Notes: generated by a model not told the origin, from the letters alone. DNA of 63,120 nt, filler included, from 4 parts of 4 records of this genome joined end to end with filler, not necessarily neighbours in it, one strand, 5' to 3'; positions 44,570-63,120 are shown, counted from the whole stretch's first letter. Numbers and translations: made by a program.

Positions 44570-44860
44570 ATGAGTAGACCTAAGCCGACTATATTACTAG
44601 AATCCACCGATCGCAAATCTTATAAGAGCGAACAGGTACTTGCGGCTGAAGGTATATGGGCAGTGTTCTACAAAAATAAACCATTCAATTTAAAATCAGC
44701 AAACATGCTGAACAACTACCCGGGACCAAAATACAAGAAAGTATCGTTTTCAAATCCTGGACACGCATTCAATCTAGCCAAAAAGATGAACACCATGTTC
44801 AACACTGAAGACTTCACAGTGGTCAAATTGACCCAGGGTGAAACTGTCAGTGAAAAATGA
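44570..44860 (+). CDS. Hypothetical basic phage protein
   Basis: Preceded by TAAATA at 44554-44559. Confidence 0.75.
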   Translation: MSRPKPTILLESTDRKSYKSEQVLAAEGIWAVFYKNKPFNLKSANMLNNYPGPKYKKVSFSNPGHAFNLAKKMNTMFNTEDFTVVKLTQGETVSEK

Positions 44861-46468: not shown

Positions 46469-46478
46469 TAGTGTTGAA

Positions 46479-46507
46479 TATAGGGCACTTTTTACCGGTG
46501 CCCTATA
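46479..46507. terminator. Stem-loop after the MoxR gene (terminator-like or processing site)
   Basis: TATAGGGCAC-N9-GTGCCCTATA, perfect 10-bp stem; no U-tract on + strand. Confidence 0.55.
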
Positions 46508-46518
46508 CCAAAAAAGAG

Positions 46519-46547
46519 TTGACTAATTTACCAAAAGAAAGTATAAT
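46519..46547 (+). promoter_or_regulatory. sigma70 promoter, probably giving a leaderless mRNA
   Basis: TTGACT-N17-TATAAT; ATG 6 nt downstream, no RBS. Confidence 0.8.
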
Positions 46548-46553
46548 AGTATT

Positions 46554-47810: not shown

Positions 47811-48097
47811 TGTTTTCAAAAACTAATCAAGTAAACCCGTTAAATTATTTCAACTGTAGGCAGTTTACCAAAAAACCTCACGGATTAGAATTTCTCAAAT
47901 TAAACTATGATTGGAATGACAACGAAGAACTTTTGGAGAAGTGGATTTTGGAAAACCTAAAAGGAAGATTCTATATTGGTAAACATTTAGGAGTTGATGT
48001 AGACAAAAAAATTGTAAACCATATTTTGGTAGGATTCGAAAACTCCAAAGAGCTATCAATATTCAATCTTAGTTGCCCATATATCAAACGTCATTAA
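47810..48097 (+). CDS. Hypothetical phage protein
   Basis: TAATG coupling. Confidence 0.7.
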   Translation: MFSKTNQVNPLNYFNCRQFTKKPHGLEFLKLNYDWNDNEELLEKWILENLKGRFYIGKHLGVDVDKKIVNHILVGFENSKELSIFNLSCPYIKRH

Positions 48098-48133
48098 ATA
48101 CTTCTGTATACAATAATAAAGGAGCATTTTAAA

Positions 48134-48436
48134 ATGACAGATACAAACCAAACAAAAACTGTAACGACTCCGACGAAAGATGAAGTAGTTGGAAAAGATG
48201 TTGCAGGTATGGCACCAAAAGTTCAAGCAGGTGCTGGAGCAGAACTTACTGTTCAAGACTTAAACGTCCTTAAACAAATTATCGACGTTGCAAGTCAACG
48301 AGGAGCATTCAAAGCCAACGAAATGGCAATGGTGGGTGCAACTTATAATAAACTAGAAGCATTTTTAAAGATTGTTGAACAGTCTCAAAAAGATGCCAAT
48401 ACACCAAAAGATGATAAACCAACGGAGGCAAAATAA
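48134..48436 (+). CDS. Hypothetical phage protein
   Basis: TAAATA at 48095-48100, AAGGAG RBS. Confidence 0.78.
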   Translation: MTDTNQTKTVTTPTKDEVVGKDVAGMAPKVQAGAGAELTVQDLNVLKQIIDVASQRGAFKANEMAMVGATYNKLEAFLKIVEQSQKDANTPKDDKPTEAK

Positions 48437-49008
48437 TGGCCGATATAAAACATGTAGGAAAATTAAAAGGTAGCGAAAAAAAAGTTGTCGTTGCTTACAG
48501 AACAATTCCTGGTGATTCAAAATCAGCAGTTGTAATCGAAACAGCAAAAATAGATCCATTGGATCATGATGCTTTAATCAAAGTTGTTGAAAGCAATGAA
48601 GGTCAAACTGCATTTGAATTGTTTGAAGTGTTAGAAAGAAATCTGACACCAGACAGTCAAGTTATGTTGAATAAATTTCACACAGGTGGATTTATGAGAA
48701 AAGTTCCAACTGACACAGTTATAATGACACCAAACACAACAGCAACAATTCAGTTAGATGAATTGAACACAATCATTGCTAAACAAAAAGGTGTATCAGT
48801 TGATGACCTAGCAGTGAAGTCAGTAAAAACGAATACTGCTACTCCTGTTGCTTCAAGTCAGTTGTCATCAGCAAGTAAAGAGCAACCTTTGACAGATGAG
48901 AGATTAGCGGCTAACTTAAGAAGCGATGCTGATCGTTTGTATAAAGAGGCAAAATTACTTAGAGAACAAGCAGAAGAACTTGTACCTACTAAGAAAAAGT
49001 CTAAGTAA
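48436..49008 (+). CDS. Hypothetical phage protein
   Basis: GGAGG RBS, TAATG coupling. Confidence 0.78.
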   Translation: MADIKHVGKLKGSEKKVVVAYRTIPGDSKSAVVIETAKIDPLDHDALIKVVESNEGQTAFELFEVLERNLTPDSQVMLNKFHTGGFMRKVPTDTVIMTPNTTATIQLDELNTIIAKQKGVSVDDLAVKSVKTNTATPVASSQLSSASKEQPLTDERLAANLRSDADRLYKEAKLLREQAEELVPTKKKSK

Positions 49009-49014
49009 AGCATA

Positions 49015-49344
49015 GTGTCTGTAGTGGTCAAATTCCGTAAAAAACAATTGCCAAAGGAAGTAGTGGCTCACTGGCCCGAAGTGTTTTCGGACCTACACAT
49101 CGAGTCAATACCAATTGAATATTTGCTGTCTATAAAGGTAGAGTTTAGAGATGGCAAGAATTGGGAAATACGTGTCAAAAAGAACCGTCAGAAGTTGACC
49201 AACAAAGAATTAGAGAAGAATATCAAGGAACTGTTTCAACATTACGGAAACAGCATCAAAAACGTGGATTTTAGGATAGATACCAACAAGGTTAAAGCAG
49301 ACATTCAAAAACGCACTAAAACCTTCCTAAAAAAGCGGAAATAG
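49015..49344 (+). CDS. Hypothetical basic phage protein
   Basis: ORF filling the operon; GTG start. Confidence 0.65.
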   Translation: MSVVVKFRKKQLPKEVVAHWPEVFSDLHIESIPIEYLLSIKVEFRDGKNWEIRVKKNRQKLTNKELEKNIKELFQHYGNSIKNVDFRIDTNKVKADIQKRTKTFLKKRK

Positions 49345-49407
49345 TAACTCCAGCAATCTGCACAGCGGAATAAATACACTATAATATACGTTAGGAGCAT
49401 ATTACAA

Positions 49408-50508
49408 ATGGCATTACAAATTAGACGTGGAACAGACGCAGAGCGAACTGGAATAACACCGATAGCAGGTGAATTAATATTCACAACAGATACAAAAAAA
49501 TTATATGTAGGTGATGGTACTACTGTAGGTGGAAACCAAGTAGACACAACATTAGCGGCACAATATCTTGCAGTCAACAGCAACATCACTCCAGATGCCA
49601 ACAACACAAGAGATTTAGGAACAAGCAGTGCAGTTTGGAGAACTGGTTTTTTCGGAACTGTAGATGCTTCACACATAGACGCTGTATCAATCAACGGTAA
49701 TATTGTTAGCGGTGATTCTACTGTCATTGTTAATGTTGGTGCAGGAACTGTAACAGCAGACCTAACAGGTAATGTTACAGGTAATGTTACAGGAGATTTA
49801 ACAGGCAGTTCTACAGGTAACCATAAAGGTTCAGTTCTTGCTGACGACAATAATGTAAGAATAGACAGTGCTATAAACAGAGTCACAAACGGTGTATTAG
49901 ACTTTAATGGAAGTGCAATTAAGTTAACATCAGGAAACGGAATTCAAATAGGTACAAACAGTTCAGTGGAAGGTGTTGGTTTAGAAATATTCAGCACAGA
50001 TCACACAGTTAGAAATGCATTAAGACTTTATTCAGATGCTGGTAATTCCAACACATTCAACTCAATAGAAGGATACGCATCTAGAGGATCAGTGGTAACT
50101 CCAACAGTGAGTGTTGCAGATGATTCATTGTTTGGTTATATTAATTACGGTCACGATGGTTCAGCGTATGTACAGTCTAGTTTTATTGTAGCAGGTGTTG
50201 ATCCACAAGCATCAGTGGCTTCTGGTGCAGTACCAGGAAATCTGTTATTGGGAACAACTCCAGATAATGGAGTAACAAATAATTTTTGTGTTATAAACAA
50301 AGATGGTAATTTAGGTATCAACATTTATCAACCAACAGAAAAATTACATGTTGACGGTAATGCAAAAGTAACAGGCTTTGTTCAGTTTGGTTCATTAACC
50401 ACTACTGAAAGAAACGCACTAACTCCAGCAAACGGTATGGTTATATACAACTCAACAGATAACAAATTCCAAGGTTACGAAAACGGCGGTTGGGCTAACT
50501 TAATTTAA
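49408..50508 (+). CDS. Phage fibre/decoration protein with Mtd-like N-terminal domain
   Basis: MALQIRRGT...GELIFTTDTKKLYVGDG; GNVTGNVTGDLTG repeats; GNLGIN...PTEKLHVDG; NGMVIYNSTDNKFQGY. Confidence 0.8.
   Translation: MALQIRRGTDAERTGITPIAGELIFTTDTKKLYVGDGTTVGGNQVDTTLAAQYLAVNSNITPDANNTRDLGTSSAVWRTGFFGTVDASHIDAVSINGNIVSGDSTVIVNVGAGTVTADLTGNVTGNVTGDLTGSSTGNHKGSVLADDNNVRIDSAINRVTNGVLDFNGSAIKLTSGNGIQIGTNSSVEGVGLEIFSTDHTVRNALRLYSDAGNSNTFNSIEGYASRGSVVTPTVSVADDSLFGYINYGHDGSAYVQSSFIVAGVDPQASVASGAVPGNLLLGTTPDNGVTNNFCVINKDGNLGINIYQPTEKLHVDGNAKVTGFVQFGSLTTTERNALTPANGMVIYNSTDNKFQGYENGGWANLI
49765..49824 (+). repeat. Degenerate 12-bp tandem repeat (5 units) encoding TGxx
   Basis: ACAGGTAATGTT x2, ACAGGAGATTTA, ACAGGCAGTTCT, ACAGGTAACCAT. 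Confidence 0.8.
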
Positions 50509-50513
50509 TCTTA

Positions 50514-50981
50514 ATGAAAGTCCGAATTACAGGACACACAAGCGGACTTGGTGCAAAGATTTATAACTATTTTAAATCTAAAGATTACGACACACAAGGA
50601 TTTACCTCAAAAAATTCATTAGAAGAAATCATAGAACATTCAAAAAATTGCGATATATTTTTTAATAATGCCTATTCAGATGACAACGTACAACTTAAAC
50701 TTTTAAATGCATTACACAACCACGTTAACAAAATGGTTGTGTGTGGTTCTGTAACAACAGAATATCCTGATCCAACTTATCCAGAATACACTCTTAACAA
50801 AAAACTTTTAGAAGAAAGATTTATGGAATTAGCAATTAATAAATTACCTAATGTAGCAGATTTGCTACTATTAAAATTAACAAGTAGTTCGTATAAAGAT
50901 CACGAAATTATTTTAAATTCAGTCGATTTTTGGATTCAAAATCCTGCAGTAATTAGTTTAACTTATAATGTTACCGATTAA
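50514..50981 (+). CDS. Minimal SDR/Rossmann-fold protein
   Basis: ITGHTSGLG, FFNNA, YTLNK (YxxxK). Confidence 0.7.
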   Translation: MKVRITGHTSGLGAKIYNYFKSKDYDTQGFTSKNSLEEIIEHSKNCDIFFNNAYSDDNVQLKLLNALHNHVNKMVVCGSVTTEYPDPTYPEYTLNKKLLEERFMELAINKLPNVADLLLLKLTSSSYKDHEIILNSVDFWIQNPAVISLTYNVTD

Positions 50982-52115
50982 TTTAGATTGTTTATCTTGA
51001 TATTCGTCCCAACTTTTCCAAGTCCACTCTGTAACAGCATAATCAATTCTTTCAGGCTGAAACAGATATTTGTTTGGTACAGTGTCGTGTAAATTATAAC
51101 CTTCATTCACCACAGCATCTCTCAACATAATTTGATGTAGAAAATTAGTAACAGGTTTGCCTGGTACAAAATCACACCAAGGACCACACTGTAATTGTTC
51201 CATGTCTATGGTTTTAGGATCACTCCATTGTATTATTCTATGAGTGATTCCATTTATTTTTACCATATAATGATAAAGATTATCATCTGCTGGTTCCTTT
51301 TCCCAAATCCAACCTTTACGATCACAAATATCTTTTATTAGTTGCACATGGTCACTTAAAAAGAACTGAGGTTCATCGGGTGATCTTCCTATATCAGAAC
51401 CTGCTCTAATTCTATACTGCCATGCTTTGTTGCCTAGTGACTGTATTTCTTCTAACACTTCTTCCATGTGTTCTAAATTTTCTAATGTATATCCTACATA
51501 ATAAACAAAGATGCCTTCAGCAATACAATTTTCAATTCCTTTTAATTGTTTTTCGTGTACTTTTTCGCCTTGATAAGAGTGGTGATTCATTCCAATCATA
51601 ACCATTCTAGTGCCTGCTTCAGCAATTTCTTTTACCCATGCTCTGTTAGAAAGTTTTACGCCATTTGTCAATATACATACATCTTCAGGTCTATTCAGTT
51701 TTTTCAATAGTGCTTTGATTTGTTTTATAAGTTCTGGTAAGTCTTTACGCACAGTAGGTTCAGCACCTGCCAATATCACAGCACCTGCATCTGCTGAAAA
51801 TCTGTTTTCTATTTGCCATAGTATTTGTTCTATTGGTTTATCTGTGGTTTTATTGTCTGGTTTATGATAACAGTGCGGACAATTCAAATTACATTTGTCT
51901 GTGACTTCCACCATGATGCCTTGAGGAATAGAATATCCTGATTTATCATATGTTAAATTGTTATAAAATTCTTTGTTGGTTTCCACAAGATAATCACTTA
52001 CACCATGTTCTGGACAAGTTTTCACAAGATGTATACCATCTTCTTTAGTTACTCTTTCTGCTTCACAGTGCCTATAACACACATGGCACAGACTGGTTGT
52101 TTTTGTATCTTGCAT
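50958..52115 (-). CDS. Radical SAM protein with N-terminal Cys/His metal-binding domain
   Basis: SLCHVC...KTCPEHG, then CNLNCPHC, AGAEPT, TNG. Confidence 0.88.
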   Translation of the reverse strand: MQDTKTTSLCHVCYRHCEAERVTKEDGIHLVKTCPEHGVSDYLVETNKEFYNNLTYDKSGYSIPQGIMVEVTDKCNLNCPHCYHKPDNKTTDKPIEQILWQIENRFSADAGAVILAGAEPTVRKDLPELIKQIKALLKKLNRPEDVCILTNGVKLSNRAWVKEIAEAGTRMVMIGMNHHSYQGEKVHEKQLKGIENCIAEGIFVYYVGYTLENLEHMEEVLEEIQSLGNKAWQYRIRAGSDIGRSPDEPQFFLSDHVQLIKDICDRKGWIWEKEPADDNLYHYMVKINGITHRIIQWSDPKTIDMEQLQCGPWCDFVPGKPVTNFLHQIMLRDAVVNEGYNLHDTVPNKYLFQPERIDYAVTEWTWKSWDEYQDKQSKLIGNIIS

Positions 52116-52119
52116 AGTA

Positions 52120-52806
52120 TTACTTATAGATAGAAATTGCTTTGTTTATAAATGAATCCGGATATACATTCCTAAAACTTTCTAAACATAATACTTGAAG
52201 TTTATCGAATGGATATGTTTTGTTTTCCTCAATACCTAATTTTTTCATCTGTGGCATCAATTGTTGCTGTCTTTCTTTAGATATATGACTCATATGCTCC
52301 TGAACAGTGATCGCAGGTTCATTGTTTCTATAAGCAAAGAAGTAATTGATTGTTCTCAATTCACCATCAATTACCCAATAACTGCTAGGGTGTAAACTGT
52401 ATTTGTAGATGCCTAATTTTTTGTGTGTTTCTAACATATACAACATTTCTTCTTCCCATCTAGGCACAACGTCTTCGAACTTTTTGCCATGACTCTGTTC
52501 CCAAAAATCATCTCCTTGTATTTCAAAATAAATTTTTTTCTCTTCGGAATCAATTCTTGTGATATTAGGTATAATTTCTTTATGGTCCACATCTAGTAAT
52601 AACAAGAAATCTTTTTCTCGACTAAACTTCATATCCATCAAAGCAGGATCTACCACTTCATTATGTCCTTTATGATATTCTGAATCATTATGAAACCACA
52701 TACAAAATTCCGTAGCATCTTCGTTTATCAAACTAGTGTAAATTAAATTGTTTCTACACAACCCTTTGCCAGGCACATTGTTGTAATAATATTTAAAATT
52801 ATTCAT
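52120..52806 (-). CDS. Degenerate protein-kinase-like fold protein
   Basis: FSREKDFL, IIPNI, LGIYKYSLHPSSYWVIDGELRTINYF spaced like kinase subdomains III-VII. Confidence 0.5.
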   Translation of the reverse strand: MNNFKYYYNNVPGKGLCRNNLIYTSLINEDATEFCMWFHNDSEYHKGHNEVVDPALMDMKFSREKDFLLLLDVDHKEIIPNITRIDSEEKKIYFEIQGDDFWEQSHGKKFEDVVPRWEEEMLYMLETHKKLGIYKYSLHPSSYWVIDGELRTINYFFAYRNNEPAITVQEHMSHISKERQQQLMPQMKKLGIEENKTYPFDKLQVLCLESFRNVYPDSFINKAISIYK

Positions 52807-53371
52807 AAGTGGGCCAAGCCTTTACTTGTTGTAGTTGTTTGAAATATACATCAGCATTAACACGCCATACTGTTTGTTGTGTGCCTCTATAATTTAACTC
52901 TTTAACTTTGGTGTAAACACCTGTGCTTTCTAAAGTTGGTGCAACAATTGAATGAACTAATCGTTGTGTTCCTTCTGCATTTTCATTTGTTGTCACATAA
53001 TAGTTCTTATTAAAGCCTGCCCACATTATTCCTGCTGGTTGAAAAAATTGTTGTGTAGTTGTTTGGTGGGTTTTAATTGTTTCCCGAGTACGAACCATTT
53101 GATATTCTTTAGGCAATTCATTTGTAAATGTACATATACGACAAGCAATACGATAACTGTCAGGACCCATTTCTGGAAATGAATGTGCCGCAGTGGATCC
53201 AATCACTTTGCCATTCCATAACAACATCCAAACCTGATATCTATCTTCTTTAGATAATGAATCTACCAACATTTTTTTGGTTGAATTGTTGACAAATCCT
53301 TTTTGGTCGGCTGTATGATAAAACGTTTCAAGATTTAACTTGTCTGAATAGGGTACCAATTTAAAAGCCAT
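52799..53371 (-). CDS. Putative GNAT-like acyltransferase
   Basis: VWMLLWNGKVIGSTAAHSF...YRIACR; weak fold-level resemblance only. Confidence 0.4.
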   Translation of the reverse strand: MAFKLVPYSDKLNLETFYHTADQKGFVNNSTKKMLVDSLSKEDRYQVWMLLWNGKVIGSTAAHSFPEMGPDSYRIACRICTFTNELPKEYQMVRTRETIKTHQTTTQQFFQPAGIMWAGFNKNYYVTTNENAEGTQRLVHSIVAPTLESTGVYTKVKELNYRGTQQTVWRVNADVYFKQLQQVKAWPTYE

Positions 53372-53388
53372 AATAAAATATCTATACT

Positions 53389-53406
53389 GTATTTAAAAGT
53401 AAATAC
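53389..53406. promoter_or_regulatory. Back-to-back TAAATAC late-type motifs between divergent genes
   Basis: GTATTTA-AAAG-TAAATAC inverted repeat in a 39-bp divergent gap. Confidence 0.65.
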
Positions 53407-53410
53407 TTTA

Positions 53411-54217
53411 ATGATTAGAGGAATTGGCGGTAGTCCATATATCAATTTAGACGAACACATAAACATAGAAGGTTTTCAACAACTGCATACCGAAATATGT
53501 AGAGGTTTTGCTCTTGCTCGTGAGTATGCCAAAGAAGGCACATGGATGTCACCAGGATTCGATCCCAAAGACATGAGTTATACTTTAAATTGGAAACCAA
53601 TTTATCAAGCACTAGAAGAATACAAAGCACTGCCTAAAGATCATCCAATTAGAAAAAATGGCGACGATTTGTATTCCAACATCAAAGATTACAAAACAAG
53701 GAATCAATTCACAAGATATTTAAAAGCAGTTTTAGGTGCTAACGATCCTTACATTTATTATTTCTTATGGGAAGAAGGAGATTGGGATCACCGAAACACA
53801 GAAAGAAACATCACAGAAGAAGCAAAATATTTTCCAGGTGTAGTGGCTTGGATTAAGGAATTAGTGAACACTGGTGTAATAGAAAGCATCGGTAGAGTGA
53901 TATTTTTTCATTGTGAACACGATGGTAAGCCATTTGAACACAGAGATCTAGATGGCAAACACGGCGACAGTCAAGGGTACACTGATCACCGTAATGAATT
54001 CATACACATTAGATACAGCACAAAAAGAGGATTCTACATATGGGATCCTGAAGTAAAAAATAAAACTTACATCAATGCCAATGCGGCATTTTGGAACGAT
54101 CAAGATTGGCATGGTGGCGATGTCAGCAACGAACAAGAATACGGCTTACGAATTGATTGTGTGTTTACAGATAAATTCAGGAAAAAAATTAAAATTGATA
54201 ATTTAAAGAGTTATTAA
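53411..54217 (+). CDS. 2OG-Fe(II)/cupin oxygenase-like protein
   Basis: EHRD...DWHGG...YGLRID facial-triad pattern. Confidence 0.65.
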   Translation: MIRGIGGSPYINLDEHINIEGFQQLHTEICRGFALAREYAKEGTWMSPGFDPKDMSYTLNWKPIYQALEEYKALPKDHPIRKNGDDLYSNIKDYKTRNQFTRYLKAVLGANDPYIYYFLWEEGDWDHRNTERNITEEAKYFPGVVAWIKELVNTGVIESIGRVIFFHCEHDGKPFEHRDLDGKHGDSQGYTDHRNEFIHIRYSTKRGFYIWDPEVKNKTYINANAAFWNDQDWHGGDVSNEQEYGLRIDCVFTDKFRKKIKIDNLKSY

Positions 54218-54777
54218 TAACATCTAACGTCAAGTGTAGAAATATACATAGGTTCATTTACGATATAATCAATAGTTCTAATTATATCATCTGCATTACA
54301 AGTAGGCTCTCCGCTTCTATCACCAGTTTTCTCGCCATAGTTTAATACTCTAACAAGACTGAACTTTAATTGCGGTCCAAATGGAGTTTGATTTGCCAAT
54401 GCGTTGTGTACAGCATCTATATGATGTTTGTCTTTTAGATATTGTTTATCGATACCAACTTGATCTAATAATTTTTTAGGGACTTTTGTTGCTAGTGATC
54501 CTATTGTTATAACTTTACGCAAAGGTGCGTCATGTGTCCAACGTTCTTGTAATTTCAGTAGTAATGAGGATTGTGAAGCACCCACGTGTGCTATGTTTAA
54601 AAATACATCTCTGGCTAACACTTCACTAACTGCGTTGTTGAGACTGTCTGTATTTGTAAAATCATATCCTGTGGTTCTACTAATACCTAAACACTGATGT
54701 GTTTTTGAATAATGTTCATATACATCTTTTCCCATGGGAGATGTGTGTCCTGTGATTGCTATTTTATCACTGTTCAT
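54214..54777 (-). CDS. Minimal SDR/Rossmann-fold protein
   Basis: KIAITGHTSPMG, GISRTTGYD, VFLNIA, YLKDK; start 54777 (ATGA overlap). Confidence 0.7.
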   Translation of the reverse strand: MNSDKIAITGHTSPMGKDVYEHYSKTHQCLGISRTTGYDFTNTDSLNNAVSEVLARDVFLNIAHVGASQSSLLLKLQERWTHDAPLRKVITIGSLATKVPKKLLDQVGIDKQYLKDKHHIDAVHNALANQTPFGPQLKFSLVRVLNYGEKTGDRSGEPTCNADDIIRTIDYIVNEPMYISTLDVRCY

Positions 54778-55328
54778 CTTTTTGTTCCAAAGAAGTTGAA
54801 GATGTATTTGGGTCTTTGTCCACAGTTGGAGCCGGCGTGCCAAGCATTTCTATCTGGCCATTTGTACACATCACCTGCTTTGGCATTGTAATACAAATCA
54901 TCTTCCACAATTAATACATGTCCAGGGTGTGTATCTTCCATGTGTACATGAAATCTTTCTATGTTGTTTAATTTACATAGTTCTTCTTCGTTGTCTTGTG
55001 TGTCCCAGTGCCAAGGGGCATGATTTCCTTGATGCACAACACTAACCCAACAACTTAAAACATCAACTCCAACGTAATCTGCAAATTTGTTTACAACACT
55101 TCTGTCAAAATTAGTTTCAGGTATACACATATCCCAACCAATTGTGCCATTTTCAGATGCAAGTTTATATCCTGCTTTGTTCCACGACTCGCTGATTTCT
55201 TTTATACCTGGAAGATCATCTTGTGTTGTGTGTCTTGGTCCTTGATATGCTGGTTTAGAATTCTTTATGGATTCAACAACTGCATTCCAGTCTATTACAT
55301 CACTACAATTTCCTACGTATTGTTTCAT
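54774..55328 (-). CDS. Asp/Asn beta-hydroxylase-like 2OG-Fe(II) oxygenase
   Basis: APWHWD...ERFH...AWHAGSN...KYIFN. Confidence 0.75.
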   Translation of the reverse strand: MKQYVGNCSDVIDWNAVVESIKNSKPAYQGPRHTTQDDLPGIKEISESWNKAGYKLASENGTIGWDMCIPETNFDRSVVNKFADYVGVDVLSCWVSVVHQGNHAPWHWDTQDNEEELCKLNNIERFHVHMEDTHPGHVLIVEDDLYYNAKAGDVYKWPDRNAWHAGSNCGQRPKYIFNFFGTKR

Positions 55329-55870
55329 TCTGCGTATGCCAAGTAATTAAAATTAAATTTAGGTACAAGTCCACAATTAGTTCCGCCATGATACGATTTA
55401 AAGTCAGGCCACTTGTGAACATCTCCTTGTTTCTGATTGTACAATGCTTCGTCGCCTACTATGAACACGTGTCCTGGTGCAGGTTCGTTAATCATTGCTG
55501 TGAATCTTACAGGATTGCCTTGCTCTGTGTATTTTTTCCAATCAACGTCCCAGTCCCAATGCCATGGAGCAGTTTTTCCTGGATATATTTTAGATATCCA
55601 ACTCTTAATCATTCTGGGTGCACCAACAAACTCGCCAAACTTCTCAGCAACCTCCATTGAAAACTCATTGCCTGGATAATAATTGATCCATTCTATAGAT
55701 TCTCTGTTGTAACTGCCTATAGTAGATAATGCATCATCAATCTCTTTTAATTCCGGTACATCTTTGACTGGAAGATATTTACAAGCAAGTTTACCTTCTT
55801 GATCCTGCACTTCTTTGATGATCGTGTTCCAGTCTAATATATCGTTACAGTTACCTACAAATTCAAGCAT
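55325..55870 (-). CDS. Asp/Asn beta-hydroxylase-like 2OG-Fe(II) oxygenase (paralog)
   Basis: APWHWD...VRF...SYHGGTN...KFNFN. Confidence 0.75.
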   Translation of the reverse strand: MLEFVGNCNDILDWNTIIKEVQDQEGKLACKYLPVKDVPELKEIDDALSTIGSYNRESIEWINYYPGNEFSMEVAEKFGEFVGAPRMIKSWISKIYPGKTAPWHWDWDVDWKKYTEQGNPVRFTAMINEPAPGHVFIVGDEALYNQKQGDVHKWPDFKSYHGGTNCGLVPKFNFNYLAYAE

Positions 55871-56483
55871 TTAAAAAATCTCCTGGCCACTCTGCATAAT
55901 TGGTTTTAATTGTTTCTTTATACAGTTCATGAGTGTCTAATTGGTTGTTTAATATAAATTTATCAAATCTATCCGTTCTTATCAATGGTTTTAGATATTT
56001 TATATCAAGGTATCTATTATCATTGTCTGTGCAACCATATAAATCCATACAGTGTGCTTCATTGGCATCATCAAAGTAAAAAGTATGAGGGTACATATTA
56101 ATTTTATATATGTTTTGTTGCTCTAAATCTTGTTTTATTTGTTTAATTTTTTCTTTCCAATTAGGTATGCTGTCTATTTGGTTATTTTCAATCAAAACAT
56201 TAAGATTTTTATTATACCATTTGAATTTAATTTCTCTTTTAGCATAGTCAATGTCTAATAATTCTGGAATATATTTTGTGTCTTTCAATTTTGAAAGATA
56301 CATCACTTCTTGATCAAACCAAAAGTTGTACAATTCTTCATTCATAGATTCATTCTCAAAATAATCGTTTGGATTCCAATTCATACAGAACACAGTGTTG
56401 TCTTCGTTCACAAGCGGTTGGTAAAGCATATTTGCCACAGCCAGTCCTTGTTTATGTTTATAAAAATGTTTCCAATTATGCAT
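55863..56483 (-). CDS. Degenerate protein-kinase-like fold protein (paralog of 52120-52806)
   Basis: Shared L[IV]NEDxTxFCM; FDQEVMYL, YIPELL, NIYKINMYPHTF...CMDLYG. Confidence 0.5.
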   Translation of the reverse strand: MHNWKHFYKHKQGLAVANMLYQPLVNEDNTVFCMNWNPNDYFENESMNEELYNFWFDQEVMYLSKLKDTKYIPELLDIDYAKREIKFKWYNKNLNVLIENNQIDSIPNWKEKIKQIKQDLEQQNIYKINMYPHTFYFDDANEAHCMDLYGCTDNDNRYLDIKYLKPLIRTDRFDKFILNNQLDTHELYKETIKTNYAEWPGDFLNA

Positions 56484-57153
56484 ATACAATATCTATTTTA
56501 AATCCACAAATTTGTTGCATCTTTAAAAGTTCATTTATTTTTGAACCATCACATAAAAATTTAATTGTGTGTTCATTAATTCTAGCAAATGAGTCTATTG
56601 ATTGTTCTTTTGCTAATCTATTAAGCAGTATTGAAAAAGAACTGTCAAAAAGATATCTTAAATTGTACACTGGATCTTTTGATGTCATAACAACCTGTCT
56701 TGGATCTTTCATCATGTGATTACTTTGCAATCTCTTACGTATTACCAATTGATATCTGTTTTTGTATCCGTAATTAGATGCTGAATGAAGCACACCTGCA
56801 TTCATCAAATACACTGTGTCGTCTGGTTTGGTAGCATACATCATTTCATCTCCAATATCATGAAGGAAACTTTGTTCTGCATCTAGTGTGAGATGATATC
56901 TGTCATCTATATCAGCATGGGCAGAATAACTTTCTCCTGGTTTTAAAACAATAACTCTTGCCTCTCCGTGATCTGGTAGTTGTTTTAATAAATCTTCAAT
57001 GGCAGTGTCTTTGTATTCTGGTAATAACTCCCATGGATCATAAAAAAAATTTCCTGTGGGCTTATTTAAAACACTTTTACCTTCTGGTAAATGTTTTACT
57101 AAATCAAACAATATTTTGGAATCAGTTTTGGTTTCTAATTTTTGTAACATCAT
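56476..57153 (-). CDS. Asp/Asn beta-hydroxylase-like 2OG-Fe(II) oxygenase
   Basis: LKPGESYSAHADIDDRYH...LHSASNYG..RYQLV; start reassigned to 57153 (TAAGTA 4 nt upstream). Confidence 0.75.
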   Translation of the reverse strand: MMLQKLETKTDSKILFDLVKHLPEGKSVLNKPTGNFFYDPWELLPEYKDTAIEDLLKQLPDHGEARVIVLKPGESYSAHADIDDRYHLTLDAEQSFLHDIGDEMMYATKPDDTVYLMNAGVLHSASNYGYKNRYQLVIRKRLQSNHMMKDPRQVVMTSKDPVYNLRYLFDSSFSILLNRLAKEQSIDSFARINEHTIKFLCDGSKINELLKMQQICGFKIDIVYA

Positions 57154-57214
57154 ATTGTACTTATCGTAAATTATAATGTGCGTACTTAATAGCGATAAAT
57201 AAAGATGTCCATAT

Positions 57215-58021
57215 ATGTCCAATTTAGAAAATATAAAATCTCTATACCAATCTAGTGCCTATCGTGATATTCTTCACGATATAAATGGAGTAGTATTTCC
57301 TTTCAATCCTGAATGGAAAAATATTGGTATCAGTGTGAGTGGTGGAGCAGACAGTGCCTTGATGAGTGTGCTGTTGTGCAGTATCATATCTCAATTAAAA
57401 TCAAACACCAATGTACACATTATTACTAACGTGAGATGTTGGAAGACCAGACCTTGGCAAAAACACAACAGTTTGAATGTGTTCAATTGGATTACTAATT
57501 CTTTTCCTAATATACAATTTAAAAGACACGAAAATTTTATTGCTCCTGATTTAGAATGGGGATCAGTAGGACCTAACATACAAGATGAGTATGGAAAATT
57601 AAAAAGCGGTAATCAAATAGAGTTAAGAGCACACGCAGAGTATGTTGCTCATACAGAAAATTTAGATGCTTGGTACTGTGGTGTAACCAAGAATCCAGAT
57701 AAAGAATTTGATGGTCGTCTATTGGCTCGAGACATCGAAGATGCTACATTAGATAGACTAATCAAAATACACATGGGCGGCTTGGCTTGTCACCCTTTCA
57801 CACATGTTCAAAAAGATTGGATAGTTGCTCAATATAAAAAATTAGGCATAATGGACCTATTTGATCTTACAAGAAGTTGTGAAGGTGATAACCAGACATA
57901 TCCTGAAGTCTTTGGAGACTTAGACTACAAGACATATGTCGAAGGGTCGCCTGTGCCAGTATGTGAAAAATGTTTTTGGTGTAAAGAAAGAGAATGGGGA
58001 GTAAGCAAATGTCAAGACTGA
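57215..58021 (+). CDS. QueC-like PP-loop ATP pyrophosphatase
   Basis: SVSGGADS; TRSC...CEKCFWCKER Zn site. Confidence 0.7.
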   Translation: MSNLENIKSLYQSSAYRDILHDINGVVFPFNPEWKNIGISVSGGADSALMSVLLCSIISQLKSNTNVHIITNVRCWKTRPWQKHNSLNVFNWITNSFPNIQFKRHENFIAPDLEWGSVGPNIQDEYGKLKSGNQIELRAHAEYVAHTENLDAWYCGVTKNPDKEFDGRLLARDIEDATLDRLIKIHMGGLACHPFTHVQKDWIVAQYKKLGIMDLFDLTRSCEGDNQTYPEVFGDLDYKTYVEGSPVPVCEKCFWCKEREWGVSKCQD

Positions 58022-58632
58022 TAACGTTTGGTTGTTCTTATGCTTATGGTACAGGATTACCTGACTGTAACAATTGGATGTTTGATAAACTGCACAATTT
58101 AAAACCTAGCAAATTGGGTTGGTCAAGTTTGTTGGCAGACAAAATGAAAGTTGAATGTGTTAACGAATCTTTTCCAGGTTCAAGCAACACAGAAATATTG
58201 TACAATGTATTAAAATTTGATTATAAGTCAGATGATACTGTGGTTATCATGTGGACACATTTTGTTAGGGATATGTTGTTTAATTTCCCTCACAAGTTTC
58301 CTTTCTTTAGAGATAGATTAGGTCCTTGGGCAAAAACACATCAAGAACGCAAATGGGCAGAGTATTTGAGTGAAAAAGATTATGCAATGAAAAGTTGGTT
58401 CAATATACAACATGCAGACTTACATCTACAAAAACAAGGAGTGGATTATATTCATTATCCTGCAACACCTGAAGAATTAAACAAAAACAAATTAAATTTT
58501 ATTCAAGTAGAAAACTATCATAGCGATGGTATTGTGTACTTGGACACAGCAACAGATGACATGCACCCGGGTATAAAAAGTAATCAACTGTTGTGTGATT
58601 CAATATATAGGAGATTAAATGACAGACCATAA
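58009..58632 (+). CDS. SGNH-like protein
   Basis: ITFGCSY, PGSSN, DDMHPG. Confidence 0.62.
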   Translation: MSRLITFGCSYAYGTGLPDCNNWMFDKLHNLKPSKLGWSSLLADKMKVECVNESFPGSSNTEILYNVLKFDYKSDDTVVIMWTHFVRDMLFNFPHKFPFFRDRLGPWAKTHQERKWAEYLSEKDYAMKSWFNIQHADLHLQKQGVDYIHYPATPEELNKNKLNFIQVENYHSDGIVYLDTATDDMHPGIKSNQLLCDSIYRRLNDRP

Positions 58633-60037
58633 CGAATATTGGCAGAATCCTAAAGATACCCAGTTGGGTAAATGGCAAAAAGAACTTGAATCTGTATCAG
58701 GCAGTTCTACATTTTGTATTCTACCATGGATACACTTTGCTACCAGACCCAATGGAGATATGAGATTGTGTTGTTCAGCAAATGCCAGTGGTGCAGGTGA
58801 AGATCATGAAGTTGGTCTTGTAAAAATGGAAGATGGCAAACCTGCAAACTTTGGCAAACACACTCCTATGGAGGCATGGAACAACGACTACATGAAGTCT
58901 GTGCGTACAACTATGATGAAAGGTAACGTACCTAATAGTTGTCGTAAATGTTTTCAAGAAGAAAAGGTGGGTGTAGTTTCAAAACGTATATGGGAAACAG
59001 GCACATGGTACAAAGATGGTGTAGACATTCCTGAACTGTTAAAACAAACCAAAGAAGATGGCACAGTGCCAGAACAATTAATGTATTTGGATCTAAGATT
59101 AGGACACACTTGTAATATAAAATGTGTGATGTGTTCACCACATGACAGTTCTAAATGGGTTAAAGATTGGCAACAGTTAATGCCTCAATTGAAAGATAAA
59201 AATGTAAAAGATCAATTACAATGGAATAAAAAAGAATTCAACAACAAGTGGCATGAAAAAGATACATTTTGGCAAGAGATGTATGCACAGATTCCTAATT
59301 TGAAACAGGTGTACTTTGCAGGTGGTGAACCTTTGATGATCAAGGAACACAAAATGTTTATAGAAGAAATTATTAGACAAGGCTATCAAGATAAGATATT
59401 GTTGCGTTACAACTCAAACGGATTGTTGGTGGACGAAGATTTGATTCAGTTGTGGAGTAAATTTAGAAAAGTTAAATTTGCTGTCAGCATGGATGCAATG
59501 GGTAAACGTGACGAGTACATACGTTATCCTACAGATTTTAAAACAGTAGAAAAAACTTTACACATGCTGGACAATACACCAGACAATATACAAACCAGTT
59601 TGGCAACAGCAATACAAATTTTTAACATAAAACACTTACCGGACTTTATGAAATGGAAAGTGGAAAGTGGATTTAAAAAATTAAATGCAGGCACTGTGCC
59701 AGGAGATGTACAAATGGGCGGCGGCTTGGTTAATATGCACTTGTTGTATATTCCTACTTTCTTAAGTATTCAAATATTACCCAAAGAAGACAAGCAAGAA
59801 GTTGAAGAAAAATTTATGGACTTTAAAGATTGGTTATGGAAAAATTACAGACAGGATGATGACTATTGGAAACACAATCCATATGGATGGCGTCGTTGGG
59901 AGGCTGTGTTAAAACATATGAATCAAAATGATCACAGTAATCTACTTCCAGGATTCAAAGAATATGTTACAAAATTAGATGCTATAAGAGGCATAGATGC
60001 AAAATCTATATTTCCGGAGTTAAAACATTTATTATGA
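58619..60037 (+). CDS. Radical SAM protein with N-terminal SPASM/twitch-like domain
   Basis: FCILPW...NGDMRLCC...CRKC; CNIKCVMC; FAGGEPL; YIRYP. Confidence 0.9.
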   Translation: MTDHNEYWQNPKDTQLGKWQKELESVSGSSTFCILPWIHFATRPNGDMRLCCSANASGAGEDHEVGLVKMEDGKPANFGKHTPMEAWNNDYMKSVRTTMMKGNVPNSCRKCFQEEKVGVVSKRIWETGTWYKDGVDIPELLKQTKEDGTVPEQLMYLDLRLGHTCNIKCVMCSPHDSSKWVKDWQQLMPQLKDKNVKDQLQWNKKEFNNKWHEKDTFWQEMYAQIPNLKQVYFAGGEPLMIKEHKMFIEEIIRQGYQDKILLRYNSNGLLVDEDLIQLWSKFRKVKFAVSMDAMGKRDEYIRYPTDFKTVEKTLHMLDNTPDNIQTSLATAIQIFNIKHLPDFMKWKVESGFKKLNAGTVPGDVQMGGGLVNMHLLYIPTFLSIQILPKEDKQEVEEKFMDFKDWLWKNYRQDDDYWKHNPYGWRRWEAVLKHMNQNDHSNLLPGFKEYVTKLDAIRGIDAKSIFPELKHLL

Positions 60038-60996
60038 ACGTAGTACAAGTATGGAATCCTCAACCTAAAGAAGTGTTGCGTATCGAATTTATGATAGGTA
60101 ATACTTGTAATTTCTCTTGTTGGTACTGTTTCGAAGGTTCACATGAAGGCACTCACAGATGGACCGACGACATGGATCAATTGGTGTTGAACTTTAAACA
60201 TCTATTTGAAAAATACAAAGCAATTGGCAAAACAAAACTTGAATTACACATTGTGGGAGGGGAACCTACATTGTGGCCTAGACTGGGAGAATTTGTTACA
60301 GAAATCAGAAAAACAATACCTTCATACATCACAATCAGTTCCAATGGAAGCAGAACTGTGAGATGGTGGCGTAAGTACGGAGAAGTGTTTGATAAAATTT
60401 TATTAAGTGCTCATTGGAAGCAGATTGATGTGCCTCACTTTATTGAAGTGGCAGACACACTGCACGAATTGGATAGAAGTCCTAACGCAATGGTTTTAAT
60501 GGATCCTACACAATGGGACGTGTGTTTAGGCTTGATTGACAAATTTAAAAAAAGTAAACATGATTGGTTTATAAGTGCTATGGAAGTTATGCACAAAACA
60601 ATCAATTACACAGAAGAACAAAAAGCATTTGTTGCCAAACCCACAAAAAGAAGACCTAGTCTATGGTATCTATGGACACACAGAAAACATTTGAAAAGCG
60701 AACCCACTGTTAAATTTGAAGATGGATCTTCAAAAAAAGTTAATCGTAACTGGTTGGTGTTAAACAAACAAAATGATTTCCGAGGCTGGATGTGTAATAT
60801 AGGAGTGGACAGTATGATGATAGACCCTGCTGGTCTAATCACAAGTGCTTGTAGAACTAAATTATTTGAAAATTATAATATATATGATCCAGACTTTGTG
60901 ACAAAATTCAATCCCGACATTAAACCGAAAATATGCGACAAACGTAACACTTGTATGTGTCAGCCTGAAAGTTTGTTGGATAAAGTTAAACTTTAG
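60034..60996 (+). CDS. Radical SAM protein with C-terminal SPASM/twitch-like domain
   Basis: CNFSCWYC, GGEPT, SNGSRT; GWMCNIG...SAC...ICDKRNTCMC. Confidence 0.9.
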   Translation: MNVVQVWNPQPKEVLRIEFMIGNTCNFSCWYCFEGSHEGTHRWTDDMDQLVLNFKHLFEKYKAIGKTKLELHIVGGEPTLWPRLGEFVTEIRKTIPSYITISSNGSRTVRWWRKYGEVFDKILLSAHWKQIDVPHFIEVADTLHELDRSPNAMVLMDPTQWDVCLGLIDKFKKSKHDWFISAMEVMHKTINYTEEQKAFVAKPTKRRPSLWYLWTHRKHLKSEPTVKFEDGSSKKVNRNWLVLNKQNDFRGWMCNIGVDSMMIDPAGLITSACRTKLFENYNIYDPDFVTKFNPDIKPKICDKRNTCMCQPESLLDKVKL

Positions 60997-61882
60997 ATTT
61001 AGTTATATTGATATCTGCGGCACACGTACACCATTCACGTGTACAGTTGATTGCTTCTGTGGGTTGTGCAAAAGTTCCTTCATAGATGTTTCCAATGGGA
61101 CCTCCCACTCTGCAAGTGGCTCTGTGAACTTCTCCGTCCCAATTAATCATTAAACTTTCTAATCCAGCATTACATTTCCACCCTTTGAATTGATTTGTTT
61201 TTGCGATCAACAAGTCGTTGGTGTTACAAGATTCAGTTTCATCTATCATTGTGTTGTGTGGAGGATTATGATTTTGTGTTACCAAAAAATCTTTTTCATC
61301 TGCAGAATAACGTTCCATGTCTTCAAAAACATCATGTGTTTCAGTCCAACGAATTGGTCGTAGAGCATAGTTTATTCCTGCTTCTTTTAGGCGTCTACAA
61401 GCGTCAGAGACGTCATCTAAATGCCCTGGTAACATCATCATATGCACTAGTATATTTTTATTTTTTGTGTGTTGTGCGACGTTTAAAACGGTTTCTATCA
61501 CTTTTTGGTAGTCATATTCAAAGTGTACAGAGAACACAATATGGTTTATCAATCTATCCAAAATATCTATGTAGAATTCAGCAGTCCTTGTACCATTTGT
61601 GGTTACATTTAACCATGACACTTTTGGTTTAGCATACTCCAACAGATCTAAAATTTTTGGATGTACACATGGTTCTCCACCTGTAAAACTTATTCTTATG
61701 TTGTTGATTTTAGAAAGTTCGTCCACAGCATTTTTTAATATGTTGATGTCTGTGTGTGGACTTGTGTTGTCATGTATCACTGCTGGACAGTAAGAACAAT
61801 CGTAATTACATCTTTTACCAAGGTTCCATTCAACCTTTACACTTTGTTTGATGTGTGGATATAAATGCTCTACCTTAAACAT
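60986..61882 (-). CDS. Radical SAM protein with C-terminal SPASM/twitch-like domain
   Basis: CNYDCSYC, TGGEPC, TNGTRT; GWKCNAG...ATC...NCTREWCTC; start likely 61882. Confidence 0.9.
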   Translation of the reverse strand: MFKVEHLYPHIKQSVKVEWNLGKRCNYDCSYCPAVIHDNTSPHTDINILKNAVDELSKINNIRISFTGGEPCVHPKILDLLEYAKPKVSWLNVTTNGTRTAEFYIDILDRLINHIVFSVHFEYDYQKVIETVLNVAQHTKNKNILVHMMMLPGHLDDVSDACRRLKEAGINYALRPIRWTETHDVFEDMERYSADEKDFLVTQNHNPPHNTMIDETESCNTNDLLIAKTNQFKGWKCNAGLESLMINWDGEVHRATCRVGGPIGNIYEGTFAQPTEAINCTREWCTCAADINITKSKV

Positions 61883-63120
61883 AATCTCGAAACTCCGGAT
61901 TGATTTTTTCAAACGGTCCTTGGTTTCTTGTAAGATCAAGTTTTCTATTAAAGTCTACACAATCTTGCCAATACTCATTAAGGTCTTTTGCTTGTAAAAA
62001 GTTTATGTTGTCTTGTATTTGTTGTTGTGTAATTTTTTCTAATATTGGGTGTTGTTTTACTATTTCATAATCTTTTATTTTAGGTTTCATTGCTTCTAGT
62101 TTTGCAACCACTTGATCTTTCAATGCTTTGGGCAACACTTGTGCCGATAATGCTCTAGGATAACTCACTCTGTGACTGTAAAACACAATCTTCATCTCTC
62201 TTAAAAAATAATCTATCACTTTGTCTATCTGCATTATGTTGTTTGCTTGTACAGTGAATGCACCTACTATTCTACTAACTGTTTTAATTTTTTTCATTTC
62301 TTTAATATTGTATTCAACATCTGAAAATTTACCATTGCCTCTGATATACTCGTATGTGTCGTGTAACCCATCTATGCTGACATTCACAGCAACACTTTTA
62401 AACTTGGGCCAATAATCATGCACAGTTCTTCCACCTTTAATGCCTAGTTTAGTTCCATTTGTGGCATACTTAATTTCAATATTATCTCCATTTTTAGATA
62501 ATAAATCTAATATTTTATAGTGTACAGGATCCATTAAAGGTTCTCCTCCTGCAAATTCCACACGTCTAAAGTGTGGCAAGAGTTTTTCTAAATTATCCCA
62601 AAAGTGATCTTTGTCTTCAAATATTCCCACATAAGGTGCTTTGGTTAAACCTAAACTTTCAACAGCATCTACTAGATAATTTCCTTCTTTTTTATAATGA
62701 TCAACAATAGCATTCCAATCTTTCCATTGTGTAGAATCTAAAGGATTACACATTCTGCATTTTAAATTACATAAGTTATTAACTTTAATCTCTATTGTGG
62801 GTAGTTCAAATGGCATCGAATAATCATCGTTAAGTGTATCCAATGCATTTGGGTATAAATTAATTCTAGATTCTGGAGACGAATCAGTGATATGTCTTTG
62901 ACGTAGGCTTTGGACTCCTTGGTCTTCTAAATCAAAACAAGGTTCACACACATCTGGACGTTCATCATTTAATACCCGACGTCTTACATCTTTCATTTTG
63001 TCTGAGTTCCATGCTTCTTCCAGACTCATATCTTTTATATTAGCAATAGGAAGACTGCGACAACACACCTTAATTGCTCCATCTTCTCTAGTAGCCAATC
63101 CTGTAAAAGGGTGCATACAA
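61875..63120 (-). CDS. Radical SAM protein with N-terminal SPASM/twitch-like domain (starts beyond window)
   Basis: CMHPF...GAIKVCC...CEPC; CNLKCRMC; FAGGEPL; YEYIRG. Confidence 0.9.
   Translation of the reverse strand, partial: CMHPFTGLATREDGAIKVCCRSLPIANIKDMSLEEAWNSDKMKDVRRRVLNDERPDVCEPCFDLEDQGVQSLRQRHITDSSPESRINLYPNALDTLNDDYSMPFELPTIEIKVNNLCNLKCRMCNPLDSTQWKDWNAIVDHYKKEGNYLVDAVESLGLTKAPYVGIFEDKDHFWDNLEKLLPHFRRVEFAGGEPLMDPVHYKILDLLSKNGDNIEIKYATNGTKLGIKGGRTVHDYWPKFKSVAVNVSIDGLHDTYEYIRGNGKFSDVEYNIKEMKKIKTVSRIVGAFTVQANNIMQIDKVIDYFLREMKIVFYSHRVSYPRALSAQVLPKALKDQVVAKLEAMKPKIKDYEIVKQHPILEKITQQQIQDNINFLQAKDLNEYWQDCVDFNRKLDLTRNQGPFEKINPEFRDYV

Follow-up and report, generated by a model that had tools for sequence, protein, structure and literature searches.

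The window analysed here (the whole stretch of DNA, 63,120 nucleotides) carries, between positions 50514 and 63120, an island of tailoring-type enzyme genes lying beside a fibre gene of a large phage. An earlier reading of the sequence alone had placed 16 consecutive modification-type genes there, beginning 5 bp after an Mtd-type fibre gene, and both statements were confirmed: all 16 open reading frames (ORFs), here named g01 to g16, are present, and the fibre stop lies 5 bp from g01 (Table 1). The block is real, but the island of which it forms the fibre-proximal half measures about 24 kb and ends in glycosyltransferase (GT)-like genes. The island is interpreted here, with evenly balanced confidence, as encoding a putative late pathway for the glycosylation of virion proteins, with radical tailoring of the glycan.

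The window does not represent a single molecule: an N-linker near 31404-31504, with a short spacer holding stops in all frames, joins two unrelated contigs. To the left lies a low-GC alphaproteobacterial contig with housekeeping and lipopolysaccharide (LPS)-type genes, presumably SAR11-like; since the linker only concatenates contigs, this co-deposition is not taken as evidence of the host. To the right lies a large phage with FolE, QueE, a T4-type exonuclease, ClpP and a MoxR-type ATPase with a vWA-peptidase, the ATPase being 51% identical to that of PA5oct-like jumbo phages. The nearest record (G001) shows 93-99% identity across five matched blocks, and the largest relative, G005, is complete at 372 kb. 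The host of the island is an uncultured marine jumbo phage, from a lineage of roughly 370-kb T4-like aquatic myophages. Relatives occur in assembled contigs of marine RNA libraries (four runs, of 23 listed, were analysed), contigs which show presence and not transcription, strand or starts.

Extent of the island and linkage to fibre genes

A search of IMG/VR with g13 returned 291 relatives, of which the best 80 (80-98% identical, in loci of 4-21 kb) were analysed. Homologues of g15 were found in 77 of these loci, of g14 in 60, g16 in 59, g11 in 48 and g10 in 43, in shuffled order; given the conservation of the g13 relatives and the recurrence of these five genes, the gene set is not due to chance. 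Linkage was counted with the gene at 48436 as anchor in the 47 loci that had at least 6 kb downstream of it. An Mtd_N fibre gene lay no more than three genes from the anchor in 46 of the 47, and an island-gene homologue was present in 42. Among the five loci lacking such a homologue, that of G005 (L153) lacks the fibre too, and L129 and L148 carry other radical SAM (S-adenosylmethionine) genes. The fibre gene at 49408-50508 may simply mark the boundary of the island.

Beyond the window, the near-identical locus L002 and the relative G002 continue with a 461-aa gene, a 2-oxoglutarate (2OG) oxygenase gene, a methyltransferase-like gene, two radical SAM genes and four GT-like genes, after which come a gene of 111 aa, four fibre-like ones and a giant structural gene (PHROG 'virion structural protein'; the name 'VrlC-like' is our own label). 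The 111-aa gene was considered as a DUF4376-type fibre chaperone and rejected, with no Pfam support in 11 members. The island thus sits between a baseplate/fibre module and the Mtd_N fibre gene, with a size varying from 21 to 46 kb: G002 has about 24 kb and 7 radical SAM matches, G003 has 21 kb and likewise 7 matches, and G006 has 46 kb and 14 matches. Moreover, near-identical strains differ by whole genes, L002 and L083 having three extra ones between g05 and g07.

Within the window, intergenic gaps range from -70 to +39 bp when longest-ORF starts are used, and after refinement of the starts the widest is 61 bp, between g10 and g11. The window end cuts g16, leaving 414 of its 424 aa inside, the full length being seen in L002.

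Two further observations concern the relatives. In G005, the place taken in others by the Mtd_N gene and the island (L153 10952-20579) is occupied by ThyX and a fibre-like gene of 2928 aa. Downstream of the fibre, the islands of L105, L121, L141 and L148 contain a TctA gene of the tripartite tricarboxylate transporter type beside adenylating enzymes, in some cases with a TctC-like neighbour.

The glycosyltransferase-like cassette

The four GT-like genes of the far half are referred to as GT-A to GT-D. All 25 loci in which GT-A was found (six of them 99-100% identical to the query) share the same order of a small gene, GT-A, GT-B, a gene of about 200 aa and GT-C, and in 24 of them a fibre/baseplate homologue lies just upstream. 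Together with the fibre count at the anchor, this upholds the linkage to structural genes for which the sequence-only reading had proposed a gene-neighbourhood analysis. The profile of GT-A/B matches glycogenin (E 1.4e-5 over about 100 positions, with the DxD motif aligned); D99 is invariant and D101 nearly so, and single members gave no match to Pfam GT8.

When 50,697 phage records were searched, g13 matched four, and GT-A or GT-C matched only Ralstonia phage RsoM2USA (MG752970). In this phage, ORFs 347-355 follow genes for a tail sheath, an NDP-sugar epimerase, a tube-like protein and a baseplate/fibre protein on the same strand, and repeat the order of the island's cassette: a small protein (123 aa, 28% identity), GT-A (39%), GT-B (32%), a protein of 184 aa (about 200 aa in the island), GT-C (42%), an N-twitch radical SAM protein (23%), GT-D (44%) and a methyltransferase-like protein (28%). 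It is a minimal version without the expansion in 2OG, QueC, pseudokinase and short-chain dehydrogenase/reductase (SDR) genes, and all its ORFs are 'hypothetical' in the record. The cassette ORFs are not among the 10 virion bands listed in the available text of PMC8504454. At the level of sequence, a fixed core (small protein, GT-A, GT-B, a protein of about 200 aa and GT-C, then GT-D, radical SAM and methyltransferase-like genes), running in the direction of the fibre genes, is conserved as far as a cultured soil phage.

The same theme occurs in a separate lineage, that of the cultured Vibrio phage K566 (L165 11732-21193), where four twitch-like radical SAM proteins matching g16 are encoded beside a small fibre-like gene; the genes between them read as GT-like from their motifs, with no family match to confirm it. 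As an independent observation, RsoM2USA also carries, at L164 25090-41155, an array of about 18 genes of roughly 200 aa, four of which, when translated, end in a similar 'F..QD.L' motif.

Late-promoter motifs and strand switches

The phage part of the window contains the motif ATAAATA three times, ahead of the gene at 44570, of the fibre gene and of g11; the shorter TAA[AG]TA precedes g04, g05, g10 and g11, the four divergent heads of the window island. In jumbo phage CBB, ATAAATA has been predicted to be the late motif (PMC5259590). All operon heads of the window bear the motif that precedes structural genes. The strand switches of the island are, at the level of motifs, back-to-back copies of a putative T4-type late promoter, a TATAAATA-like box about one turn upstream of the start which is shared with the structural genes. 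Four divergent heads, the fibre promoter and a far-side operon would together cover all 16 genes.

For the counts, TAA[AG]TA was sought within 60 nt upstream, after removal of upstream regions at least 75% alike. It precedes 63 of 79 divergent island heads (shuffle mean 12, maximum 21) and 27 of 28 structural heads; among core heads the figure is 20 of 99 (shuffle 14.2, maximum 23), none of them with the motif at -13..-9. At island heads the motif starts at -13..-9 in 44 of the 79, against 1.1 in shuffles. Thirteen divergent heads with uncertain starts, counted apart, have it in five cases, and when heads downstream of the fibre were counted without regard to family, 37 of 49 had it (shuffle 8.9, maximum 18). 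A Shine-Dalgarno sequence is present at 8 of 79 island heads, 62 of 99 core heads and 23 of 28 structural heads. In T4, the late box of 8 bp starts at -13 (PMC2988020); with TAAATA at -11, the transcript would therefore start on the ATG. These patterns suggest that the island genes are transcribed late, often from leaderless mRNAs. A scan of 47800-63120 for sigma-70 promoters and terminators yielded no signal (72 sites against 68 expected, and 7 against 7). As regards the gene at 44570-44860, it is a conserved 96-aa gene among the core genes, with ATAAATA upstream in 37 of 40 homologues, and is probably a late gene.

Tailoring enzymes

Five radical SAM proteins (g02 and g13 to g16) pass the PF04055 cut-off with an intact CxxxCxxC. 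The earlier count, in which four of the five had twitch/SPASM-like Cys domains, was borne out, since g13 and g16 have an N-terminal twitch, g14 and g15 have C-terminal Cys clusters and g02 is without a twitch. Both g13 and g16 belong to family NF033640 (N_Twi_rSAM; curated cut-off 170 bits), in which an N-terminal twitch Cys cluster precedes the CxxxCxxC and GGE motifs; C51, C52, C108, C111, C165, C169, C172 and AGGEP are invariant, and C33 nearly so. No assigned function was found for this family, and the context of the island suggests sugar tailoring. Searched against the PDB, the N-twitch profile matches Tes, SkfB and BlsE over the core, weakly in the case of BlsE (7vob), and BtrN (4m7s) over the twitch domain (E 1e-4), with reversed domain order, as the twitch comes first in the g13/g16 type. 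BtrN is an aminocyclitol dehydrogenase, and the chemistry of BtrN and BlsE is that of sugars and nucleosides. In cellular genomes, 13 hand-picked loci of the 78 containing N-twitch genes (88 proteins scanned) showed a GT or NDP-sugar gene nearby in eight cases, three of which also have PhyH-type 2OG genes.

The four expected 2OG-Fe(II) oxygenases (g05, g07, g08 and g10) all possess the HxD...H facial triad; the sole Pfam match of the set is that of g10, below cut-off, and the profile of g07/g08 found no relative in the PDB. The two mini-SDRs, g01 and g06, likewise show the Gly-rich loop, Ser and YxxxK that their naming implied. The GNAT-like and SGNH-like calls stood less firmly, by a weak PDB match for g04 and by motifs alone for g12. 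None of the 16 window proteins, nor of the downstream island proteins checked, has a transmembrane stretch (maximum 19-mer hydropathy 1.52), and the island enzymes are predicted to be soluble, with metal and cofactor motifs intact.

Two observations touch on these enzymes in relatives and elsewhere. At L124 7456-8289, within an island, a fusion joins a cold-shock (nucleic-acid-binding) domain to a 2OG oxygenase, which hints at an action of some cargo on RNA or DNA. Contigs of metagenome-assembled genomes (L194, L195, L222 and L233) hold 7-10 CxxxCxxC genes inside 17 kb, some of which may be mis-binned phage and others true Bdellovibrionota arrays.

The gene announced as QueC-like, g11, has the fold, the ATP loop and the Zn ligands, but not the canonical QueC motifs. 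Its model (pLDDT 90.7) has QueC 3bl5 as top Foldseek match, and VIA Z values are tied at 13.6 for TilS/MesJ, 13.0 for QueC and 12.9 for Cap9; a profile search of the PDB by sequence gave nothing useful, and no match was found among cultured phages. In 23 g11 sequences the SGGxDS loop and a four-Cys Zn site are invariant, features which, with the fold, are common to the QueC family including Cap9/QatC (Libby 2026, PMC13329287). It differs from QueC, Cap9 and QatC, as far as the available part of that source describes them, by a longer spacing after the first Cys (C-x27-CxxCxxC) and by its own motifs WxTRPW, TRSCEG and CFWCxE. The motifs YxQxHxxE, VPxRN and YPDC given there are absent from the g11 alignment, as are the Y/FxQ, RN and YxDC motifs of Cap9, with which g11 is tied in fold. 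Thus, g11 is a predicted QueC-fold protein but not a canonical QueC. Its neighbours are g10, g12, g13 and g16, with no CD-NTase or QatB gene adjacent, and g10 is the divergent upstream neighbour in 16 of 21 non-redundant cases. That g11 might be the obligatory missing QueC of a deazaguanine module was considered and rejected, since in G005 FolE and a QueE-like match are present without g11; canonical QueC (PF06508) matched none of five related records.

The two proteins earlier called kinase-like, g03 and g09, keep the kinase fold and lack the catalytic residues, and are therefore pseudokinases. The g03 model (pLDDT 93.5) reaches a best VIA Z of 12.6 (rmsd 3.3, 188 aligned), with 200 chains at Z of at least 8, and RNA kinase Ark1 is among its top Foldseek matches; the fold of g09 is known from alignment to g03 alone. 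With the residue register taken from an alignment to TTK, the catalytic Asp is found in 0 of 29 local and 0 of 55 library representatives of both families, the catalytic-loop Asn in 0 of 29 and 1 of 55, and the beta3 Lys in 6 of 29 and 1 of 55. The DFG Asp is Asn in all 17 g03-type sequences and Asp in all 12 of the g09 type. The pseudokinase family is compact (208 representatives at E<=0.001). A g09-type domain is fused to a g08-type oxygenase in one protein (P0004; 35%, E 5e-32), and in 11 of 14 non-redundant cases g07 or g08 comes next after g09 on its strand. When g08 and g09 were co-folded without alignments, the score was 0.00, which speaks neither for nor against binding.

Table 1. Position of the island genes, the fibre gene and the putative promoter motifs in the window
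Feature	Positions	Strand	Basis and remarks
Late-promoter-type motif ATAAATA upstream of fibre gene	49370..49376	+	One of 3 in the phage part of the window; upstream in 26/26 fibre homologues
Mtd_N fibre-like virion protein, 366 aa, fixed island boundary	49408..50508	+	Pfam Mtd_N E 2e-12; homologues about 24-83% identical
g01 mini-SDR	50514..50981	+	Profile matches SDRs in PDB, best E 7e-5; Ser and YxxxK present
g02 radical SAM, N-terminal Zn ribbon, no twitch	50958..52115	-	TrsS/Tes-like, far under those cut-offs
g03 pseudokinase	52120..52806	-	Kinase fold; Ser at catalytic Asp position; DFG = NYF
g04 GNAT-like acyltransferase, weak assignment	52799..53371	-	Profile vs PDB 3t9y E 0.032
Divergent gap, back-to-back TAAATA motifs	53372..53410	.	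-24 before g04, -11 before g05
g05 Fe/2OG oxygenase	53411..54217	+	H177-x-D179...H234 invariant in 17 aligned homologues
g06 mini-SDR	54214..54777	-	Start refined to ATG 54777
g07 Fe/2OG oxygenase	54774..55328	-	H107, D109, H164 invariant
g08 Fe/2OG oxygenase, g07 paralogue	55325..55870	-	H104, D106, H161 invariant
g09 pseudokinase	55863..56483	-	Asn/Thr at catalytic Asp position; DFG Asp present
g10 AspH-like Fe/2OG oxygenase with extra C-terminal domain	56476..57153	-	PF05118 below cut-off; HxD and distal His invariant; start refined to ATG 57153
Divergent gap	57154..57214	.	TAAGTA at -10 before g10; ATAAATA at about -20 before g11
g11 QueC-fold PP-loop ATPase with Zn site	57215..58021	+	SGGADS and four Cys invariant
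g12 SGNH-like hydrolase/acyltransferase, motif level	57994..58632	+	GCS...FPGSSN...DxxH; no Pfam match
g13 N-terminal-twitch radical SAM, most conserved island gene	58619..60037	+	NF033640 392.6 bits
g14 radical SAM with C-terminal Cys cluster	60034..60996	+	Pfam and Cys pattern
g15 radical SAM with C-terminal Cys cluster	60986..61882	-	Start refined to ATG 61882
g16 N-terminal-twitch radical SAM; its initial 10 codons lie past the window end	61875..63120	-	NF033640 322 bits

Proposed pathway and alternative explanations

The sequence-only reading had laid its emphasis on direct chemistry on peptides or proteins. This emphasis was not sustained: the conserved core is GT-like with a glycogenin match, the twitch domain matches BtrN, cellular N-twitch genes are often found in polysaccharide loci and the kinases are pseudokinases. 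In the pathway which is favoured instead, and which stands at even balance, the genes would be transcribed late, during virion assembly. GT-A/B, being GT8/glycogenin-like, would prime a glycan on a fibre, baseplate or other virion protein, and GT-C/D would extend it. The N-twitch and other radical SAM enzymes may oxidise, epimerise or deoxygenate sugars or NDP precursors, presumably as BtrN-type enzymes do; the SDRs would reset keto groups, the 2OG oxygenases hydroxylate, and the GNAT, SGNH and methyltransferase proteins add acyl and methyl groups. The QueC-fold enzyme might adenylate a carboxylate to give an amide or conjugate, and the pseudokinases could assist the oxygenases as non-phosphorylating partners. 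As tailoring genes are gained and lost, a strain-specific surface chemistry would result, for host attachment or shielding.

Several results weigh against this proposal. There is no GT among the 16 window genes, and GT-C/D are weakly GT-like: the DxD is invariant, Pfam GT2 is matched at E about 0.06 in 2 of 13 scanned and the Atlas gives an automatic name, while a profile search of the PDB returned no match. Four of the 13 cellular N-twitch loci are without a glycan gene and one is ambiguous, in a tally made without a background control. The complete 372-kb G005 has no island, which is therefore dispensable in the lineage. Relatives, of which 91 of 125 extracted proteins near the fibre were scanned, carry some cargo foreign to a pure glycan pathway: a TctA transporter and AMP-binding, Trp-halogenase-like, desaturase-like, pyridoxal phosphate (PLP) and IMPDH/GMPR enzymes. 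As for the late motif, it shows no clear enrichment before co-oriented island genes with gaps of at least 25 bp (11 of 41; shuffle maximum 14) and precedes 7 of 13 genes not homologous to this island (shuffle maximum 7). Finally, since the loci are related, the locus counts do not stand for independent events.

Direct post-translational modification of virion proteins, by chemistry on side chains or of the kind seen in peptides made by ribosomes and modified after translation (RiPPs), survives best among the alternatives, and is nevertheless judged unlikely. AspH-like oxygenases would hydroxylate Asn/Asp and radical SAM enzymes cross-link or epimerise residues; possibly, the QueC-fold enzyme would join a carboxylate, perhaps phage-made 7-carboxy-7-deazaguanine, to a protein amine, as Cap9/QatC do. 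The late motif and the fibre linkage fit this equally well, g10 and many island oxygenases match Asp_Arg_Hydrox, g11 is structurally tied between QueC and Cap9, FolE and QueE lie 8-10 kb upstream, and the fibre contains 10% Asn and 11% Thr. However, the window island has no free ATG ORF of 18-89 aa, in agreement with the earlier finding of no precursor peptide, and among the 25 largest conserved small-ORF clusters of the relatives none lay inside an island, a result that leaves room for a precursor elsewhere in the genome. All radical SAM scores are far under the cut-offs of the peptide-maturase families (NCBIfam), and a general Pfam scan of the window proteins, in which no dedicated search was made, gave no RiPP recognition element. 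Further, the minimal core of RsoM2USA consists of GT-like genes with one adjacent radical SAM gene, its flanking proteins having no match to the window 2OG and QueC genes. The conjugation variant is also opposed by the lack of g11 matches among cultured phages, by G005 having FolE and no g11, and by the absence of the Cap9 motifs.

Next comes a diffusible or packaged small molecule, similar to a secondary metabolite and made late, for example a siderophore, signal or inhibitor released at lysis; it, too, is improbable. The TctABC-type transporter, adenylating enzymes, halogenase, desaturases and aminotransferases of relatives' islands would suit it, one cellular N-twitch gene lies among ketosynthase genes (L267), and a metabolite of the sugar/amino-acid type was put forward for cyanophage clusters by Iyer et al. 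(PMC7824862). Yet what stays invariant is the GT cassette with its coupling to fibre genes, the window island has no scaffold-building enzyme or exporter, and gene turnover between near-identical strains suits optional decoration better than a linear pathway.

Less probable again, and considered decidedly unlikely, is a remodelling of the host surface polysaccharide (O-antigen or capsule) to exclude competing phages, as proposed in PMC7029224 for the host-recognition clusters of pelagimyophages and in PMC7824862. Cellular N-twitch genes do occur with 2OG genes in Wzm/Wzt-type loci (L221, L252 and L200), but late-type promoters would switch the genes on shortly before lysis, no membrane protein, flippase or polymerase is encoded in the window island, and the core is common to phages from the sea and a Ralstonia phage from soil, although the surfaces of their hosts differ. 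Very improbable is hypermodification of the phage's DNA or of RNA: GTs, radical SAM enzymes, GNATs and 2OG enzymes are used in phage base hypermodification, and the QueC fold and the Ark1 match of g03 point the same way, but a FolE/QueE module that includes a TGT-like gene (a motif reading, with no Pfam match) exists separately in the genome, these core genes are without the late motif (ATAAATA in 0 of 24 FolE and 0 of 26 QueE upstream regions), late timing and fibre coupling would be unexpected, and g03 lacks the kinase catalytic residues.

A bolder form of the favoured glycosylation pathway is a tentative and rather doubtful possibility. It pictures jumbo phages with a programmed, strain-variable coat, the phage equivalent of O-antigen, in which a glycogenin-primed, protein-linked glycan would be rewritten by up to a dozen radical SAM/oxygenase steps into sugars not known elsewhere, possibly capped by the QueC-fold enzyme with a nucleobase-type acid, and expressed from leaderless late mRNAs with a new pseudokinase family as oxygenase partners. 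The radical-SAM-rich regions of aquatic T4-like phages have so far been filed as iron-sulfur auxiliary metabolism or host O-antigen editing. If the island were a late pathway directed at the virion, abundant ocean phages would spend up to about an eighth of their genome on variable surface chemistry, which could set host range, decay and iron demand, and there would be substrates for an uncharacterised radical SAM family, a new QueC clade and a new pseudokinase family. The minimal core in a cultured phage and the predicted solubility of the enzymes make the question testable.

Relation to known systems

This kind of island is already in print: GT-rich islands with radical SAM cassettes beside fibre genes have been described as host recognition clusters (HRCs; Zaragoza-Solas 2020, PMC7029224), and GT clusters in jumbo phages in PMC7824862. 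The HRCs of pelagi- and cyanomyophages are likewise large, non-syntenic and adjacent to VrlC-like and fibre genes, with GTs and gain or loss of radical SAM cassettes. The present island differs in belonging to a jumbo phage of roughly 370 kb, in having as far boundary an Mtd_N gene next to core genes and not the neck gene gp14, and in the dominance of radical SAM and 2OG genes; as described in the available text, HRCs are bounded by gp14 in SAR11 or cyanobacterial myophages, a definition that the island falls outside, and its putative late promoters speak against a role in host O-antigen as suggested there.

One marine T4-like genome, similarly rich in this family, was reported to hold up to 12 radical SAM genes (Nishimura 2017, PMC5332604), which are read there as Fe-S auxiliary metabolism; the text available connects them with neither fibre genes, GTs nor late expression. 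In mycobacteriophages, phage GTs put glycans on capsid and tail proteins (Freeman 2023, as cited in PMC12619734); the accessible summary includes no radical or oxidative tailoring, whereas here four GT-like genes are accompanied by 7-14 radical SAM genes and many oxygenases. No experimental study of such an island was found in the literature, a search whose coverage leaves out most subscription papers. What is new here is the late-promoter motif at the operon heads, the minimal core of RsoM2USA, the pseudokinase status of g03 and g09 and the non-canonical QueC-fold gene.

Other features of the window

A deazaguanine-type module extends over 31505-42297 of the window and L271 246-1736, with a QueD-like gene (35157), a GT-like gene (35705), FolE and QueE, in addition to PRT, HIT, 2OG and two SGNH-like genes. 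A 496-aa gene of this module, cut by the gap, is presumably TGT/DpdA-like from its motifs, with no Pfam match. In the phage core region, a Gfo/Idh/MocA oxidoreductase lies beside a zinc-type alcohol dehydrogenase at 32836-34621, forming a sugar-oxidoreductase-like pair.

The MoxR-type AAA ATPase and its metallopeptidase-vWA partner occupy 45356-47810, a pair described for group 2.2 jumbo phages (PMC7824862). On the bacterial side of the linker, positions 1-7478 form an LPS/O-antigen-type island with a GC content of 22-25%. Its genes presumably encode a DegT-like protein, a GMC oxidoreductase, methyltransferases and an epimerase.

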